From: a virus
Reading direction: 5' to 3' (one strand)
Length of the DNA stretch: 44,493 nucleotides
IMG/VR virus record: IMGVR_UViG_3300050016_000032
Coordinates: 1-44,493 of that record
In this document: positions 24,175 through 44,493 of the stretch, piece by piece
Numbering within the stretch: the first letter of the stretch is position 1
Layout of the letters: each line of letters opens with the position of its first letter
Notes under the pieces: generated by a model
Told to the model about the DNA's origin: nothing
The model's input: the letters and a program-made list of their open reading frames with translations, nothing else
The model's database searches: none
Position numbers and translations under genes: made by a program

Positions 24175-25257
24175 ATGCCTGAAGCAACAACCAGTGGATT
24201 GGTCGATCAAGCGACGGCGGCGACAGCCATCACGCAGGCCCAGTGGGCCGCTGCGGGGGGTGCAGCAGACGCGATCACCGCCGCCTACCCAATCCCCAAC
24301 ACTGCGCTTACAGACGGCCTCATACTCGGTTTCCGGGCCTCCGCGGCCAACGCTACGGCGACCCCGACATTCTCCCCCGATGGCCTCACCGCTCACACGA
24401 TCACAGACGACGGCGGAACCGCGCTTACCCCGGGCGTAATCGCGGGCGCGAACGCTGAATACCTGGTTCGGTACAACCTTGCCAATACCCGGTGGGAATT
24501 GCTCAACCCTAACGATGTCTCACAGATCCCGTGGGTGATCGCTGGCGGCACCGGGGACGCCATCACGGCTACCTATGCCCCGGTCGTTCTAAGCCTCACT
24601 GACGGGCTTATGCTGGCCTTCCGGGCATCCGCCGCCAACACCCTGACCAACCCCACCTTCGCCCCCAACGGGCTCACGGCGCACGCCATTACGAAGAAGG
24701 GTGGCACAGCCCTTGCGGCCGGCGACATCCCCGCTGCCGGGGCGGAAGTTCTGGTTCGATACAATCTCGCCAACACGCGGTGGGAAACCGCTGCGGCCAC
24801 GCCAAGCCTGCGTCAGATCTTTGCCGTTGTCGGTGGCACCGGCACCAACGTCAACACCGCACAAGCATGGTTTCCCGGGGTCGCCGTCGCTCTTGGCGTT
24901 GGAACGTACACCCTCGACGGCTTCCTGTTTCTCAGTCGCGCAGCGGGCTCGACCTCGCACACCACGGCGCTCCTGTTCGGCGGCACGGCCACCGTTGGAG
25001 TGATCGGCTATGTGGTGCAGGCGTCCACCGCCGACGCTCTTGCCCTTGTTGCGGCAAACACATTCTTTGGATCATCTGCGGCCGCGCTTGTGGTCAAGGC
25101 GGCTTCGACCAGCACGACGGAACAGGCTTGGTTCAAGGTGGGAGGCATCGTGGTTATCGGTACAGCCGGGACGTTCATCCCACAGTTCATCTACTCGGCC
25201 GCGCCCGGTGGCGCACCCACGATCACTGCCGGCTTCGAACTCGTGAATGTGGGGTAA
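24175..25257 (+). CDS. Tail fibre protein with a tandemly duplicated ~95-aa N-terminal module
   Basis: ORF 24166..25257 trimmed to the ATG at 24175. Two copies of GG..DAITA.Y......LTDGL.L.FRASAAN....PTF.P.GLTAH.IT..GGTAL..G.I......L.RYNLANTRWE, a module common in phage fibres. Confidence 0.7.
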   Translation: MPEATTSGLVDQATAATAITQAQWAAAGGAADAITAAYPIPNTALTDGLILGFRASAANATATPTFSPDGLTAHTITDDGGTALTPGVIAGANAEYLVRYNLANTRWELLNPNDVSQIPWVIAGGTGDAITATYAPVVLSLTDGLMLAFRASAANTLTNPTFAPNGLTAHAITKKGGTALAAGDIPAAGAEVLVRYNLANTRWETAAATPSLRQIFAVVGGTGTNVNTAQAWFPGVAVALGVGTYTLDGFLFLSRAAGSTSHTTALLFGGTATVGVIGYVVQASTADALALVAANTFFGSSAAALVVKAASTSTTEQAWFKVGGIVVIGTAGTFIPQFIYSAAPGGAPTITAGFELVNVG

Positions 25258-25651
25258 GACATTGGCGATCCATCTTCCGCAACCCATGCAGGCCAGCATC
25301 GACGTAGGGATCGTCGCCGTCATCCTTGGGACATTGGGCGGCGTGGTCCCCGCCGTCGCCGCCGTACTCGGCCTGCTCTACTATGCCATCCAGGTATGGG
25401 AGAGCGCCACGGTGAAAGAATGGGTGCGCTCTTATCGCCAACGGCATGCGGCACGAAGGCTGCGCAAGCTAGCGGCCAAGCAGAAAGTGCTTCAGGCGTC
25501 GATTGCCGCGGCCGAACTCGTCCGTCAGGCTACCGCAGTGGCGGCGGTGGTGATCGAGAACGCTAAGGCTGAGGCGACGATTGCTGCGCAAGCGCCCGTT
25601 CCGCCTCTATCTCTGTCTGAAGCAGCGCCAAAGCCCGCCAAGCAACTTTAG
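25247..25651 (+). CDS. Membrane protein, holin/i-spanin-like, two possible starts (25247, 25286)
   Basis: Hydrophobic IDVGIVAVILGTLGGVVPAVAAVLGLLYYAI, then a charged helical tail. Last gene of the + block. No clear SD at either ATG. Confidence 0.5.
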   Translation: MWGKTLAIHLPQPMQASIDVGIVAVILGTLGGVVPAVAAVLGLLYYAIQVWESATVKEWVRSYRQRHAARRLRKLAAKQKVLQASIAAAELVRQATAVAAVVIENAKAEATIAAQAPVPPLSLSEAAPKPAKQL

Positions 25652-25886
25652 CACTATGCCTGATCCCATCTGTGTCCAGAGTGCCGCGCTCGATCAGATG
25701 ACGCGCGATGCAGTCGGCATGGTCGGTGGACTTCTCCCGCGCCCAATGCAACGGCTGACCCGGGTTGTGTTGCTCGTTGCCGATGCGTGAAGTCTCGGCC
25801 ACCGCAGCGATCGCATCGGGGAAGTAGTCTAGAACACCTGTGGTGATCGGCGTGGCCTTACGCTGGGCTGCGTCTGCGGTGAGCAT
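25563..25886 (-). CDS. DUF5664-like protein (dATP/dGTP diphosphohydrolase N-terminal-domain-like)
   Basis: Strong SD GGAGGAAG. The pattern LDYFPDAIAAVAETSRIGNEQHNPGQPLHW...HADCIARHL...D.DG..HSAKVAWRALALLQ resembles that domain family. This is recalled, not searched. Confidence 0.5.
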   Translation of the reverse strand: MLTADAAQRKATPITTGVLDYFPDAIAAVAETSRIGNEQHNPGQPLHWAREKSTDHADCIARHLIERGTLDTDGIRHSAKVAWRALALLQTEIEAERALAQQSSPQP

Positions 25887-26202
25887 CAGTCTTCCTCCAG
25901 TTGACGAGTTGTTCGTCGTCTAGGCGTGAGCCTTGGTGAATGCAGAGCGGGTCGTCCTCGATCCACACGTCGATCTTGATGCCACGTTCTTTTATCACGT
26001 CAGCCTTTGGCCGGCCATCGCAATAGACGATGCCGGCGCCGAGGCGTTCGAGGTGGGTTTCCAGGGCCAAGCGATCGTGGACAGCGTGGCGCAGCGTGAC
26101 GATCAGAACCTTGTAGCCGTGGGCCTTGCAGTTGTGCAGGAACAAGTCCCAAAAGGCCGGGTGCAGTGTGTAGGTGCCATCGAAGTCGAGCGCGATCTTC
26201 AT
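25858..26202 (-). CDS. HAD-superfamily phosphatase (deoxyribonucleotidase-like)
   Basis: ORF trimmed to the ATG at 26202 (SD GGGAGA). HAD motifs are DFDGT (I), IVTLR (II), RPK (III) and IEDD (IV). Confidence 0.7.
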   Translation of the reverse strand: MKIALDFDGTYTLHPAFWDLFLHNCKAHGYKVLIVTLRHAVHDRLALETHLERLGAGIVYCDGRPKADVIKERGIKIDVWIEDDPLCIHQGSRLDDEQLVNWRKTDAHRRRSPA

Positions 26203-26519
26203 GGGCCAATCTCCCGGTACTCGACGGTCTTGCCCGCCTTTGTAGCCGCCGCGATACCGTAGGCCATGCCGCGGGAAATTCCCCGATCCACATAGACCAC
26301 AGTTCCATCGGACACATGCCGCCACGCAAGACCCGCGTCAATGCCCCACTGGCGTTCTTCGGGCACTTCGTCCCGCAGCACCCCGGGCTGCGTGTAGAGA
26401 AGGTGTGACGCTATCGGTGCCTCCCCACGCGCAAGGCTGTCCCGCACCGCACGGCGAGCGTATTCAGTGTTGGCCTCGATGTCGCCCGCATACGGGCTTT
26501 CTACGATGACGAGTTTCAT
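26199..26519 (-). CDS. Nucleoside 2-deoxyribosyltransferase-like (DUF4406-like) small Rossmann protein
   Basis: ORF trimmed to the ATG at 26519 (SD GGAAGGG). The pattern KLVIVESPYAG...YARRAVRDSLARGEAPIASHLLY...VVYVDRGISRGM fits that fold family. Assignment tentative. Confidence 0.5.
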   Translation of the reverse strand: MKLVIVESPYAGDIEANTEYARRAVRDSLARGEAPIASHLLYTQPGVLRDEVPEERQWGIDAGLAWRHVSDGTVVYVDRGISRGMAYGIAAATKAGKTVEYREIGP

Positions 26520-26520
26520 A

Positions 26521-26724
26521 TCAGACCCTTCCGAGTTCGGAGGTGCAGATGACTTCTTTGGTGAAGAACTTGAACTCGCACCGTGCGCACCAGCGATACC
26601 GGCGTATCGTCCCTTTGTGCGCCCGGCTCTCCAACACACGAAGAGAAGTCATTTCACACACCGGACAGGCCAGAGATTTGCCGTTGCCCCTCCAGTTAAC
26701 GCCGCTCTCATTTGACCTCGCCAT
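26521..26724 (-). CDS. NrdR-like zinc-ribbon protein lacking the ATP-cone
   Basis: CPVCEMTSLRVLESRAHKGTIRRYRWCARCEFKFFTKEV aligns with E. coli NrdR [41 protein letters not shown]. The protein ends about 10 aa after the ribbon. SD GGGAGA. Confidence 0.7.
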   Translation of the reverse strand: MARSNESGVNWRGNGKSLACPVCEMTSLRVLESRAHKGTIRRYRWCARCEFKFFTKEVICTSELGRV

Positions 26725-27955
26725 TCCGTGTCTCCCACTCTACCCACTTGGCCGTGTCAGATGATTTCAGTTTGGGCTCCAGGTACACCGCCCACTGCGC
26801 CGTGATGCCGTACTTGGCATTGACGAAGAACAGGGCTTGGCAGGGGCGGGAGTACGGCACCCGCAGCATCAGGCGGGCGTACTCGTCGTATCCTTTGAGA
26901 GCTCCGTTGACGATTACTGGAACTGCGTCTCCCCTGGGAATGTAAGTGTGGTAGTGCCCCATGAGTAGCGTGTCGAAATCTCGACCGATTTGAGCCTCTG
27001 ATCTTCCAACCTTGGTGACACCGCGAGCGATAGGACCGATTGCTCCAATGATGCCATCGCCTCCCTTAACTCCGAGAGTGTCGCCGTGTGTGAGAAGGAA
27101 ACGGTGGCCGAGAACTGAGAAATAGGCGTCGGTTTCTCCGGGGATTGAGAATTGGACACGGGTATCTCCTTTTGCTTTGAACCAGCGTTCGAGCTGGCAG
27201 TAGATGTTCCACTCATAACTCTCGTAGACCCGGTTCTTGGCCCGGGGCTTGAGCGTGTTGCGACCGTGGTTGCCGACCACACAGGGTACGAAGACCTTGC
27301 CGAACTGATCCGCCATGCGGGTTAGCGCGGCGATCAGTTGCTCCTGCACCTCTAGGATGGATTGCTGTACGGGTCCGTCGTTAGTCTCACGAAGTTCATC
27401 GTGGATAGTCCCTGAGATAAAATCACCGCCAAGACAAACAACAATGCCAGGATAGTTAGGCCGTACCATGTGATGTACCGCCAGTTCGATCGTGCCATCG
27501 ACAAGCCGCTGGAGCCTGGCCTTGGCGATCTTGCGGTTGAACTCATTGACCCCTCCGACTTCTTCCTTGTTGACGACCTCGCCCCAGTGGAAGTCGGACC
27601 AGATGGCGACCGGCACGCCGGCGTGGCCGACGTTTGGTTTCTTCGTCAGCCATGCGGGCGGGTCAGGTGTGTAGGCCGACAGGTTGTAAATCTTCTCACG
27701 GACATCGGCAGCGGAATTGTTGTCTCGGCTGATTTTTACTAACTCGGCCTGCAAAATCTTAACTTTGGTCTTCAGCTTGGAGAACTCGTCGTCAACCTTG
27801 GTGTCCGCCGTCAGGCCACGGGTCTTGGCCTCAAGGATGGATGTGCGGAAGGCGCTGGTCTTCATCTGCATCATCTTCGCGGCTTCACTGGGGCCGCAGT
27901 CGCGATGAAGTTTCAGGCGTTCGACAAGTTCGGCATCGCTGAGACGGTCTGTCAT
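26708..27955 (-). CDS. Calcineurin-like metallophosphoesterase (SbcD/Mre11-like) with N-terminal helical/HTH-like extension
   Basis: Motifs IWSDFHWG, LGGDFISG, VVGNHG, LLTHGD, LMGHYH. Confidence 0.75.
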   Translation of the reverse strand: MTDRLSDAELVERLKLHRDCGPSEAAKMMQMKTSAFRTSILEAKTRGLTADTKVDDEFSKLKTKVKILQAELVKISRDNNSAADVREKIYNLSAYTPDPPAWLTKKPNVGHAGVPVAIWSDFHWGEVVNKEEVGGVNEFNRKIAKARLQRLVDGTIELAVHHMVRPNYPGIVVCLGGDFISGTIHDELRETNDGPVQQSILEVQEQLIAALTRMADQFGKVFVPCVVGNHGRNTLKPRAKNRVYESYEWNIYCQLERWFKAKGDTRVQFSIPGETDAYFSVLGHRFLLTHGDTLGVKGGDGIIGAIGPIARGVTKVGRSEAQIGRDFDTLLMGHYHTYIPRGDAVPVIVNGALKGYDEYARLMLRVPYSRPCQALFFVNAKYGITAQWAVYLEPKLKSSDTAKWVEWETRNGEVK

Positions 27956-28191
27956 TTAGGCCCACGATCAGTGTCAAGGATAAACCGGATTGCCATTGCC
28001 GCAACCTGAATGGCTTCCTTGCGGGCCTTCGCCGGGTCGCCATGAAAGACCTCGTATTTGAGTTCGTCCACTTCCTCCAGCAGTACCGCGTAGCCTTCGT
28101 GCGCAGAGTGGAAAGGCGGGAAGGCGAGAACAGCCTGAGTGAGTTCCGCTTCCACCTCGGCCAGAACACCCGTGTCGATAACCGTCTGCAT
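27952..28191 (-). CDS. MazG-like all-alpha NTP pyrophosphohydrolase (79 aa)
   Basis: ORF 27952..28494 trimmed to the ATG at 28191, because the upstream part overlaps the resolvase gene. Motif FHSAHEGYAVLLEEVDELKYEV. Confidence 0.65.
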   Translation of the reverse strand: MQTVIDTGVLAEVEAELTQAVLAFPPFHSAHEGYAVLLEEVDELKYEVFHGDPAKARKEAIQVAAMAIRFILDTDRGPK

Positions 28192-36203: not shown

Positions 36204-36346
36204 TTTGGTTCTTTCGACGGTGGGCGGACTTTGCGCACCGGTTTCTTCCGGGTGCGCTCGGCGAGAATGATCTTCTGCGCTTCCACGACCCGAGCCCGAG
36301 CGTCGAGTTCACGCTGCTCCGCTTTGGTCGGAATTTTCGGTGGCAT
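36200..36346 (-). CDS. Small basic protein (48 aa), first gene of the leftward replication operon
   Basis: ATG at 36346 lies 7 nt after GGAGAA. Lys/Arg-rich. TTGA overlap with the SNF2 start. Confidence 0.45.
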   Translation of the reverse strand: MPPKIPTKAEQRELDARARVVEAQKIILAERTRKKPVRKVRPPSKEPN

Positions 36347-36428
36347 TTGACTTTCTCCAGATTGTCGGCGTACCGTACCAGCCGTCGAGAGGGAGCGCAA
36401 CATTAAATCCGCCCTGCACCTTGCCGCC

Positions 36429-38240
36429 TTGGCCTACGCCGAGGCCAGCATTCCTGTCTTTCCCTGCATCGCTGGCGGTAAGGCGCCAGCCACCGCACAC
36501 GGGTTTCAGGACGCTACCACCTCGATCGAGCAGATTGACGCCTGGTGGGGCGAGGCGGATTACAACCTCGCTCTCTGCCCCGAGAACGCGGGCTGGTGCG
36601 TCATCGACCTGGACCCGGACTGCGACGATCTCGATGTTCCCGACACATACGAAGTCAAGACCCCGCGCGGCGCCCATCTCTATTTCAAGGGCTCACTCCC
36701 ACCGACAACCGGCAAACTGGGCGAGCATATCGACACCCGCGGCGTCGGTTCCTATGTTCTGGTGCCGCCCTCGATCGTCGATGGAAAAACTTACGAGGTA
36801 TTGCATGACCGAGACATCGCAGAACTCCCAGCTTGGGTTGCTGAACGAGTTCGAAGATCGGATGAACAACATGGCAGCTCTGTGTCACAACCTGATCTTG
36901 GAACAGCACGTGCTCGCGCGCGAAGCCACCTGGCTAGTCTCGTACAGCGAGGCGATGTTGCAATCGATGGACGAGGCGGGGATACGCGAACTTTCCAACT
37001 TGCTTGCGAACTACTTAACCTGGGCGTCTCATCGGAGACTGCTCGGGAACTGTTAGAGGAAATATGGAACCCGCACTGCCTGCCGCCGTGGACTTCGGAC
37101 GAGCTGGCGGTTAAGGTTGATAACGCCGTCCGGTACGCGCAAAACGAACCGGGCGCGTGGGGTGTTGAGCCGGCAGAGACAACCTTCCGCGGTGCTCTCG
37201 ACAAGCTGGCGAAGGAAAAAAACTCGCCGGCTCAACGTTCCCGCTTTCACGCTGAAGACGAAACCGAACAGGAAGAAGGCAAAGACCCGTCATGGCTGAT
37301 AAAGGATTTGTTTCCCGAACTATCCACCATCCTGACGGTAGGACAGAGCGGATCCTACAAATCCTTTCTGATGCTGGATTTGGCGCTGTGTTTAGCAACG
37401 GGAAAATCGTGGTGCGGAAGCCAGCCATTGCAGATGGGACCAGTGTTCTATGCGGCGTCAGAAGGTCGGCACTCGCTGAAGAAGGCACGGCGTCGAGCCT
37501 GGAAGATCGCCAAAGAGTTCGATGGTGGGATACCTGACTTCTTCGTGATGCCGACGCCGATCGTGGCCTACCCGGAAGACTGCCAGGAGTTCGGCGACGA
37601 GATCGCCCGTCGCTGCGGTGACGACCGCAAGCCCGCCATCATCTTTCTGGACACCGTGGCGAAGTGCATGGCCGGGCTCAACGAGAACGACGCAGGCGAT
37701 GCCGGCCGCTTCGTCAAATTCTGTGATAGCCTTGTGGATGCCTTCGGCTGCTCCGTGGTGGCCGTGCATCACCAGTCGGACAAGGACGGGGCCAGCGTCG
37801 TGCGCGGCTCGTCAGCTCTACGCGCTGGCTTCGACAGCCTGATCCACGTCAAGGCTCATCGCGCCACCAAGGCCGTCGAGATGCGCGTATTGCAGCACAA
37901 GGACGCTGACGAGCCCGAACACCCGTGGACGTTCCAAGGCAAAGCGGTGGGGCCGTCGCTGGTATTCCAGCCAACCACACCCGACGAGCACCGGGCGCTG
38001 ACCGGCGAGGCTACCGGGCTCGATCGGAAATCAGTCGGCGCCATGCTGAAATCGTTGAACGCGATCGGGCCGAGCAATGCCGTGACCACGCATGTCCTGG
38101 CGATGTCGCTGGTGCCGGCCGGGTCGAGTGACGACCTAATTAAGACGATGACACGGAGCCTGACGACGCTCGGCCGCGGGAAACTGGAAGCCTACTGCCA
38201 GCGCCTTGGCCGCGACCTGGCCTGGTCACTACCCGCCTAG
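36429..38240 (+). CDS. Bifunctional primase-polymerase (Prim-Pol) fused to a RecA/DnaB-like (AAA_25-type) helicase domain
   Basis: Prim-Pol motifs VIDLDPD, GAHLYFK, IDTRGVGSYVLVPPS. Walker A GQSGSYKS, Walker B AIIFLDTV. The start is uncertain: the frame is open from 36351 and TTG 36429 is the first canonical start. Confidence 0.85.
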   Translation: MAYAEASIPVFPCIAGGKAPATAHGFQDATTSIEQIDAWWGEADYNLALCPENAGWCVIDLDPDCDDLDVPDTYEVKTPRGAHLYFKGSLPPTTGKLGEHIDTRGVGSYVLVPPSIVDGKTYEVLHDRDIAELPAWVAERVRRSDEQHGSSVSQPDLGTARARARSHLASLVQRGDVAIDGRGGDTRTFQLACELLNLGVSSETARELLEEIWNPHCLPPWTSDELAVKVDNAVRYAQNEPGAWGVEPAETTFRGALDKLAKEKNSPAQRSRFHAEDETEQEEGKDPSWLIKDLFPELSTILTVGQSGSYKSFLMLDLALCLATGKSWCGSQPLQMGPVFYAASEGRHSLKKARRRAWKIAKEFDGGIPDFFVMPTPIVAYPEDCQEFGDEIARRCGDDRKPAIIFLDTVAKCMAGLNENDAGDAGRFVKFCDSLVDAFGCSVVAVHHQSDKDGASVVRGSSALRAGFDSLIHVKAHRATKAVEMRVLQHKDADEPEHPWTFQGKAVGPSLVFQPTTPDEHRALTGEATGLDRKSVGAMLKSLNAIGPSNAVTTHVLAMSLVPAGSSDDLIKTMTRSLTTLGRGKLEAYCQRLGRDLAWSLPA

Positions 38241-39600: not shown

Positions 39601-39896
39601 GTTGCGACCGGGAAAATGATGCCAACGGTCTGACCGGAATGCGAGGCGATGCGCGCGAGCGCGTCATTCGCCACAGTCGTTGCATCCTCCAGGCCGCGGG
39701 CAAGGTGAAGTTTCATGCGACCATAAGCAAAGGGGTCGCTGTGGTGCGCAGAGGCGTGCAGGCGAGCTGCGCGTTCGTCCAGTACCTTGTTGCGCGGCGC
39801 CACACGATAGGCGTCAGACATGCCTTGCAGGTCCGCCTTCCAGCGACGATCGAGCAAGCCGAGCAATTCCGATGGACCTTGCGGCAGATTGGTCAA
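39597..39896 (-). CDS. Hypothetical early protein (99 aa)
   Basis: TTG start overlapping the upstream TGA. Confidence 0.5.
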   Translation of the reverse strand: MTNLPQGPSELLGLLDRRWKADLQGMSDAYRVAPRNKVLDERAARLHASAHHSDPFAYGRMKLHLARGLEDATTVANDALARIASHSGQTVGIIFPVAT

Positions 39897-40138
39897 TTCC
39901 GTTCCTCCGCATCATGCATGAAGGCCGGCACCGGATTGCCCGGCTTCCACGGTTCCTGATACGTCGTCTGCGTCCGCAAACCCCGCGGAGCGGGTTTAGC
40001 CGCCGGCAGTTCCAGACGCCAGATGCGGCCAATGACGGAATTGCGCGTGCGATGCAGGTGGTCCCCAATCGCACGCCGGCTCATCTTGCGATGATTGTCC
40101 ACCAAAAATTTGTCGTCTTCCTCTGTCCATTTTTTCAC
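39893..40138 (-). CDS. GcrA-like cell-cycle regulator homologue (N-terminal DNA-binding domain type)
   Basis: KKWTEEDDKFLVDNHRKMSRRAIGDHLHRTRNSVIGRIWRLEL parallels GcrA W(T/S)xE...L...G.S...IA..LG.(S/T)RNAVIGK.HRLGL. GTG start overlapping the upstream TGA. Confidence 0.7.
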   Translation of the reverse strand: MKKWTEEDDKFLVDNHRKMSRRAIGDHLHRTRNSVIGRIWRLELPAAKPAPRGLRTQTTYQEPWKPGNPVPAFMHDAEERN

Positions 40139-44394: not shown

Positions 44395-44493
44395 CAGGTG
44401 CGATTGATAATCATTCTCAATTTGGATGGTCAGATGAGAATGGTTCGCAACAAAGATACCAGGTGCGATTGATAATCATTCTCAATTTGGATG
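44395..44493. repeat. Terminal redundancy: nt 44395-44493 are identical to nt 1-99 (one full 65-bp unit plus 34 nt)
   Basis: Base-by-base comparison of the two ends. Consistent with a circular or circularly permuted assembly overlap, or a short direct terminal repeat. Confidence 0.95.

Follow-up and report, generated by a model that had tools for sequence, protein, structure and literature searches.

What do the last six genes of a phage replication operon contribute to the virus that carries them? The locus that raises this question lies in IMG/VR virus record IMGVR_UViG_3300050016_000032, a DNA of 44,493 nucleotides that we analysed at full length and refer to as the window. Here, the genes for PolA and a resolvase are followed, in transcription order, by genes for a candidate MazG-like nucleoside triphosphate (NTP) pyrophosphohydrolase, a metallophosphoesterase (MPE), a Zn ribbon protein, a DUF7768 protein, a candidate HAD-like phosphatase and a DUF5664 protein. 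An initial annotation described the six genes as one nucleotide-pool module. We arrive, with moderate confidence, at a different description: the 3ʹ tail of the replication operon is a mosaic with a two-step nucleotide-breakdown core, formed by the DUF5664 and HAD-like proteins. The genes themselves are real. Open reading frame (ORF) calls confirm all six where the initial annotation had placed them, tightly packed on the minus strand. Homologues of each are numerous: DUF7768 has 6681 and the MazG-like protein 1604, DUF5664 recurs in more than 588 viral loci, and the HAD-like family comprises 1098 cluster representatives. The domain calls also hold, at least at the level of fold or motif. The DUF5664, DUF7768 and Zn ribbon proteins pass Pfam cut-offs; the calls for the MPE, MazG-like and HAD-like proteins, none of which matches Pfam, are backed by conserved motifs and, for the MazG-like protein, by a predicted fold.

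The precedent for a breakdown core comes from Poubanne et al. (Nucleic Acids Research (NAR) 2026, February; PMC12884076), who worked on Arthrobacter phage Wayne and its PurZ0 relatives, in which adenine is replaced by 2-aminoadenine (Z). The stand-alone DUF5664 enzyme of Wayne converts dATP, dUTP and dGTP to deoxynucleoside monophosphates (dNMPs) and pyrophosphate. A second enzyme, DmtZ, which resembles nucleoside 2-deoxyribosyltransferases (NDTs), hydrolyses dAMP to adenine and moves deoxyribose-5-phosphate onto the Z base; its essential residues are Tyr6, Asn77 and Glu103, and it is usually fused to a Dut-like dATPase, DutZ. DUF5664 in phages with canonical genomes is mentioned in that paper and not studied there. 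The sequence of reactions that the initial annotation drew on paper, from deoxynucleoside triphosphate (dNTP) to dNMP and on to removal of the dNMP, matches these experiments. Its impression that the combination had not been described is superseded by the same paper, in which an NTP pyrophosphatase and an NDT-like enzyme are already described as partners. We found no other paper that treats these families in such a context in the literature searched.

The DUF5664 protein of the window matches PF18909 over residues 8–96 (41.9 bits against a cut-off of 27, E = 1e-10) and phrog_27780 (4.7e-41). Pairwise BLASTP between it and the Wayne enzyme (ALY10775.1) returned nothing; an hhalign profile comparison aligned the two with an E-value of 2.3e-5 and a probability of 76%, and residues G36, P45, W48, R62, H63, D71 and H77 are identical in both. 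Since the Wayne enzyme is only a remote relative, we infer activity and specificity from it at a distance: the window protein is a predicted dNTP pyrophosphohydrolase.

Gene neighbourhoods couple DUF5664 to enzymes of a particular kind. Of the 80 viral DUF5664 loci closest to that of the window, 25 have DUF4406 or NDT as a direct neighbour or fusion partner, and at least eight contain a DUF5664-DUF4406 fusion ORF. The fusions in L031, L035, L038, L039, L067, L077, L082 and L089 are single ORFs of 311–367 aa, with DUF5664 at the N-terminus and DUF4406, a member of the NDT clan, at the C-terminus. No cultured phage in the collection examined has the full fusion; a similar theme is seen in the cultured phages phi297 (DUF4406 next to DUF550) and BaileyBlu (MazG-like next to NDT). 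A Pfam census of 150 immediate DUF5664 neighbours gave DUF4406 13 times, Metallophos seven times, NT5C and Nuc_deoxyrib_tr six times each, and DUF1937 five times. Background rates are much lower than those at DUF5664 loci: NDT-clan genes occur in 9 of 80 MazG-like loci, and DUF4406 in 1 of 80 DUF7768 loci. What recurs robustly is DUF5664 combined with a predicted dNMP-acting enzyme.

In the lineage of the window, the conserved partner of DUF5664 is the HAD-like gene. A DUF5664-family gene directly abuts it in 11 of 80 HAD-like loci, all 11 among the closest homologues, and the DUF5664 genes at these loci are of three different subtypes and stand in both gene orders. In L266 the order is DUF5664, HAD-like, NDT-like; DUF5664 also abuts the HAD-like gene in L084. 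The HAD-like protein belongs to an unnamed family. Residues of HAD motifs I–IV (D6, D8, T10, T36, K66 and D82/D83) show little or no variation across 50 diverse homologues. The window protein has no Pfam match above cut-off; two of the 50 homologues reach PF12710 weakly (E = 0.064), and a weak profile match to PDB entry 2obb (E = 0.48) aligns motifs I, II and IV. The same DxDxT, T, K and DD motifs are found in NT5C-type 5ʹ(3ʹ)-deoxyribonucleotidases, and NT5C adjoins DUF5664 in six other viral loci, in the position that the HAD-like gene occupies here. Unlike NT5C, the HAD-like protein is cap-less, and it has no significant sequence match to NT5C or to Pfam HAD families.

How would such a pair work? 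We propose that the DUF5664 enzyme would convert a (d)NTP to (d)NMP and pyrophosphate, as demonstrated for its remote homologue, and that the adjacent enzyme would then remove the monophosphate, so that host kinases could not recharge it. In the window, this removal would fall to the cap-less HAD-like phosphatase, with nucleoside and phosphate as the presumed products; in relatives, an NDT-type or NT5C enzyme would take the same step.

Comparison with related genomes separates what is kept from what is inserted. PolA, resolvase and MPE are kept together in five related genomes of 31–44 kb that were found through the MPE (L001–L005), and also in L099–L101. DUF5664 closes the operon in L001–L005, L099 and L100. 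The closest relative, L099 (PolA 84% and MPE 88% identical), has the order PolA, 101-aa ORF, resolvase, MPE, Zn ribbon, HAD-like, DUF5664. The MazG-like and DUF7768 genes are missing, and because L099 has 2-nt gaps at exactly the two sites where the window holds them, these two genes are insertions or deletions, that is, accessory genes. Within L001–L005, the MazG-like gene occurs once, elsewhere, upstream of PolA in L004, and neither DUF7768 nor the Zn ribbon was found. The Zn ribbon was also not found in the wider set L001–L014; among the relatives, its sole homologue is in L099, in the same slot and 52% identical, and in L100 this slot is occupied by a GerE helix-turn-helix gene. The 101-aa ORF between PolA and the resolvase is kept in L099 (68% identity) and L100 (34%). 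Between MPE and DUF5664 lies DUF4406 in L001 and L005, Nuc_deoxyrib_tr in L004, an NDT-like ORF with a dCMP deaminase in L003, and the HAD-like gene in L099–L101; this slot changes in family, not in kind. The region is therefore best described as a mosaic of three gene kinds rather than one conserved six-gene module: the MPE of the replication core, a lineage-conserved tail of Zn ribbon, HAD-like and DUF5664 genes, and the two accessory genes. The view of the six genes as a unit fails here, since the MPE goes with PolA and the resolvase, L099 does without two of the genes, and the full set does not co-occur in relatives.

What does the phage gain from breaking nucleotides down? The first 99 nt of the window are identical to the last 99 (44395–44493), an assembler overlap, and the window is for this reason a complete genome of about 44.39 kb, circular or circularly permuted; within the terminal stretch, nucleotides 1–34 recur at 66–99. 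A Pfam scan of this complete genome (116 ORFs plus local genes) revealed no PurZ, Dut, ThyA, kinase or glycosyltransferase. More specifically, its ORFs contain no match to PF00709, the adenylosuccinate-synthetase homologue to which PurZ and PurZ0 belong, and none to the dUTPase family. The initial annotation had noted that the module has no kinase, synthase or glycosylase of a known DNA-modification pathway; across the complete genome, too, there is no synthase, kinase or other modification marker. A Z genome is ruled out by the absence of PurZ, and a base-replacement pathway is unlikely, judging from the gene content. Because PurZ, Dut and base-synthesis genes are all missing, the locus probably serves to sanitise the nucleotide pool or to remove a nucleotide selectively rather than to make a modified base. 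The target may be dUTP, dATP or dGTP, or a non-canonical or antiviral nucleotide.

The resemblance to the PurZ0 phages is considerable. In Wayne and in Gordonia phage Ghobes (PMC12884076), as in the window, the replication genes close with a DUF5664-family pyrophosphatase encoded downstream of PolA; in Wayne, the DUF5664 and DmtZ-type genes come after PolA and PurZ0, which is the same position. In both types of phage, DUF5664 is paired with a dNMP-consuming enzyme, fused versions exist, and the common logic would be conversion of dNTP to dNMP followed by irreversible removal. In contrast to the PurZ0 phages, the window has no PurZ0, Dut-like enzyme or DmtZ orthologue, its DUF5664 protein is of a different, remote subfamily, its partner proteins are a HAD-like phosphatase and an NDT-fold protein without the catalytic glutamate, and its genome most likely contains canonical bases. 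A DUF5664 domain is also present in the dATP/dGTP pyrophosphohydrolase of Acinetobacter phage SH-Ab 15497, a DUF550 (MazZ)-DUF5664 fusion that is the source of the Pfam name; the window protein is instead a stand-alone DUF5664 protein without DUF550, and PurZ or DatZ is not present. Closer in sequence are Xp10 33L and the proteins of Roseobacter phage SIO1 and phiKMV-like phages such as Sphaerotilus phage R1, which belong to the same DUF5664 subfamily (47–75% identity). The DUF5664 genes of Xp10 and R1 are likewise at the end of the DNA-metabolism genes; unlike in the window, HAD-like, DUF7768 and MazG-like neighbours are missing from Xp10, SIO1 and the phiKMV-like phages. Xp10 33L (L102 3986–4753) is 255 aa long; DUF5664 makes up its N-terminal third, and the remaining ~150 aa have no Pfam match. 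Overall, the locus resembles the published phage nucleotide pathway more than it does a new system, and we describe it as an accessory nucleotide-metabolism cassette.

The two accessory genes, for the MazG-like and DUF7768 proteins, require separate consideration. An AlphaFold2 model of the MazG-like protein (predicted local distance difference test (pLDDT) score 93.8) is a three-helix bundle. Its closest folds in the PDB (2p06, 2yxh and the MazG protein of 7yh5) belong to the MazG superfamily and reach template modelling (TM) scores of 0.6–0.68 at weak E-values of 0.3–1; viral fold matches include named NTP pyrophosphatases. PF03819 is reached weakly by 8 of 34 homologues. Residues H31, E32, E39, E40, E43, E59 and Q62 are invariant; the ExxEExxE motif is kept, and the second motif is E59xxQ62, with an invariant Q where ExxD has D. 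In three contigs the MazG-like and DUF7768 proteins are fused in a single ORF of ~207 aa (L151 3707–4327, L163 3710–4330 and L199 3557–4198), and all three contigs are of jumbo-phage size (357–392 kb). Other long ORFs upstream of DUF7768 were rejected as fusions and attributed to GC-rich read-through, with the exception of those in L151 and L163.

The sole Pfam match of the DUF7768 protein is to PF24963 (114 bits, 3.7e-33), with no match to PF05014 or PF15891; it also matches phrog_355, annotated as NDT (4e-30). According to its AlphaFold2 model (pLDDT 79), the protein has an NDT/DNPH1 fold: the top Foldseek matches are NDT 9emx (TM score 0.77), 8pqt and DNPH1 4kxl, with TM scores of 0.66–0.77, E-values around 1e-3 and a probability of 1.0. 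Profile comparison with DUF4406 and DmtZ was too weak to fix the register of the active site, and we evaluated both candidates. In the register that follows the NDT “GMELG” motif, the nucleophile position is A86 in the window and glutamate in 31 of 81 homologues; in the register preferred by hhalign, it is G88 in the window and glycine in 78 of 81. In neither register does the alignment point to a conserved NDT nucleophile glutamate. The NDT-like call of the initial annotation is thus upheld for the fold and not for the catalytic residue, and the usual partner, a DNA methyltransferase, also speaks against it. Compared with DNPH1/Rcl and the NDTs on which it superposes, DUF7768 is one beta-alpha unit shorter, has its own invariant residues (E7, H39, D78, G84 and M85), and is typically linked to DNA methyltransferases: in 68 viral loci, its direct neighbours are N6_N4_Mtase 12 times, Dam eight times, DNMK three times and Mom once. 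Unlike these usual surroundings, the genome studied here has no DNA methyltransferase gene. The DUF7768 family is very large and unusually well conserved, its 120 top homologues all being at least 75% identical (75–86%, across unrelated contigs).

Because L099 has neither the MazG-like nor the DUF7768 gene, and because the two are fused in the three jumbo contigs, they may represent a second, parallel pair with the same logic. A bolder reading builds on this, and we hold it as a possibility that we doubt more than we believe: phages with canonical genomes would widely carry a two-enzyme unit for destroying dNTPs, two such pairs would be present here, one nucleotide would be eliminated, and DUF7768 would act by a new mechanism. 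Each unit would consist of an all-alpha pyrophosphatase (DUF5664 or MazG-like) and a cleaver of monophosphates (DUF4406/NDT, NT5C or HAD-like), often fused; in the window, DUF5664 would pair with the HAD-like protein, and the MazG-like protein with DUF7768. The target might be dUTP, given the absence of Dut, or one canonical dNTP, or a host antiviral analogue.

The other two genes appear to have different roles. The MPE matches phrog_284, annotated as exonuclease (6.5e-50), and its five metal motifs (D121xH123, GD178, GN229H230, H290 and GH334xH336) do not vary among 13 relatives. Neither Pfam Metallophos nor a PDB sequence matches the window protein; cultured relatives are annotated as exonuclease or as PolD small-subunit-like. 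Because it is kept with PolA and the resolvase in relatives and is annotated as an exonuclease, the MPE is most likely, on the available homology, a DNA exonuclease of the replication and recombination core; on the same two grounds we reject a nucleotide phosphodiesterase. The Zn ribbon passes the PF22811 cut-off (39.9 bits, 3.9e-10), and the NrdR model TIGR00244 covers only residues 18–59, with 27 bits against a cut-off of 124.65. An NrdR repressor is ruled out, since the protein has no ATP-cone, and NrdR-box-like sites in the window do not exceed chance. It is possibly a small DNA-binding protein.

Could these observations be explained without a nucleotide-breakdown core? Several of them weigh against such a core. 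The DUF5664 protein is a remote homologue of the assayed enzyme, and about half or more of DUF5664 loci have no recognisable dNMP-acting neighbour. The HAD-like protein was assigned by its motifs and a weak match in the PDB. Macromolecules are frequent substrates of HADs without a cap, and for this reason it could, by analogy, be a polynucleotide phosphatase. For the MazG-like protein, fold matches come with weak E-values, and ExxQ takes the place of ExxD as the second metal motif. DUF7768 is without the conserved catalytic glutamate, and it is usually found beside DNA methyltransferases; it is beside DUF5664 in 4 of 80 loci. The genes might instead be independent accessory genes (morons) with no common pathway, which we judge to be fairly unlikely. 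The HAD-like protein would then be a polynucleotide 3ʹ-phosphatase that acts with the MPE on DNA ends, DUF7768 would serve DNA methylation or another DNA transaction, and DUF5664 and the MazG-like protein would be stand-alone house-cleaning enzymes. Such independence would fit the lack of conservation of the six-gene set, the N6_N4 and Dam methyltransferases that dominate around DUF7768, the cap-less form of the HAD-like protein, typical of enzymes that act on macromolecules, and the exonuclease annotation of the MPE. However, 11 unrelated viral loci have DUF5664 and HAD-like genes directly side by side, in either order and with DUF5664 of different subtypes. Together with the recurrence of NT5C and NDT-clan genes beside DUF5664, also as fusions, this is hard to explain without functional coupling.

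A role in counter-defence, in which the enzymes destroy a host antiviral nucleotide (a chain-terminating ddh-nucleotide or a modified NTP) or an immune signal, strikes us as distinctly improbable. The genes do look accessory, being patchy, mobile and highly conserved: besides the high identity among DUF7768 proteins, related DUF5664 proteins are 62–78% identical across unrelated contigs. They are also at the end of the operon, where accessory genes accumulate, and the genome lacks a partner for base synthesis. On the other hand, no similarity to a known anti-defence enzyme was found, in searches that did not include PADLOC and dedicated anti-defence libraries; DUF5664 biochemistry exists for dATP, dGTP and dUTP only (PMC12884076); and the long-studied phages Xp10 and SIO1 have the same subfamily, with no such role reported. 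Least probable of all, and by our estimate very much so, is the view that all six genes form one salvage or base-swap route to supply PolA with an unusual nucleotide, or that they remove one canonical dNTP completely because the genome carries a replaced base. The idea has a basis in the PurZ0 phages, where DUF5664 and the NDT-like DmtZ serve base replacement and are also encoded directly after PolA. Against it, the complete genome has no gene for a PurZ/PurA-like protein, Dut, a thymidylate-synthase-like protein, a kinase or a transferase; the NDT-fold protein is without the nucleophile that transfer requires; L099 has only four of the six genes; and the MPE is a replication nuclease. The suggestion of the initial annotation that a base swap supplies PolA with an unusual nucleotide finds no support here. 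We therefore retain the breakdown core of DUF5664 and HAD-like proteins as the preferred interpretation.

The coordinates of the six genes and their upstream context are as follows.

Genes at the 3ʹ end of the leftward replication operon, with positions in the window and the basis of each assignment
Feature	Coordinates	Strand	Length	Basis	Remark
MazG-like NTP pyrophosphohydrolase candidate	28191-27952	minus	79 aa	fold and motif, no Pfam	
MPE, calcineurin-like	27955-26708	minus	415 aa	motifs, phrog_284	
Zn ribbon, NrdR-type four-cysteine	26724-26521	minus	67 aa	PF22811	
DUF7768 protein	26519-26199	minus	106 aa	PF24963, phrog_355	
HAD-like phosphatase candidate, cap-less	26202-25858	minus	114 aa	HAD motifs	
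DUF5664 (dGTP_diPhyd_N) protein	25886-25563	minus	107 aa	PF18909, phrog_27780	last gene of leftward operon
PolA	30787-28799	minus			same operon, upstream of six genes
ORF between PolA and resolvase	28826-28521	minus	101 aa	no family match	
PD-(D/E)XK resolvase-like gene	28528-28196	minus			same operon, upstream of six genes

The PolA and resolvase context was identified by PF00476, phrog_17, PF24608 and phrog_244. Neighbouring genes share an ATGA overlap at two junctions and overlap by 17 and 29 nt at two others; at a further two, they are 1 and 4 nt apart. No promoter-like sites were found between positions 25000 and 31200, and terminator-like sites do not exceed shuffled controls. A DNA-level search of the 6-kb region against phages gave only short matches of 69–72%, over DUF7768 and DUF5664. 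PDB sequence and profile searches with the five proteins other than the Zn ribbon gave nothing significant, and NCBIfam gave no useful names for the products.

Elsewhere, this podophage genome encodes head-tail connector, capsid and terminase proteins of the T7 type, and its replication set includes a DUF2800 nuclease, an Enc34-type single-stranded DNA-binding protein, an SNF2 helicase and PrimPol. The gene for a PrimPol and AAA_25 primase-helicase (36429–38240) is on the plus strand within an otherwise leftward early region, and the leftward operon therefore probably starts in the divergent gap at 36204–36428. At the other end, the last rightward gene (25247–25651, plus strand, 134 aa, one predicted transmembrane helix) converges on the 3ʹ end of the DUF5664 gene with an 89-nt overlap; a similar overlap is called in L099. 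A short minus-strand ORF at 39893–40138 has weak similarity to GcrA, an alphaproteobacterial cell-cycle regulator, and DUF7768 homologues are present in Parvibaculum and Bradyrhizobium records. Together, these similarities hint at an alphaproteobacterial host.

What is the wider significance of a nucleotide-breakdown core? Both DNA modification and the arms race between phages and nucleotide-based host defences depend on how phages control the nucleotide pool. DUF5664 activity has been demonstrated solely in Z-genome phages. In the window and several hundred related loci, DUF5664 is coupled to dNMP-consuming partners in phages without base-replacement genes, and phages without such genes that carry DUF5664 include the classic Xp10 and SIO1. 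Where phages lack base replacement, the widespread pairs and fusions that DUF5664 forms with dNMP-acting partners are, like the DUF7768 family, leads that extend beyond this genome. If the pair does remove a specific nucleotide, this would be a common and unrecognised phage function, and it would provide a testable role for three large unnamed families, the HAD-like, MazG-like and DUF7768 proteins.

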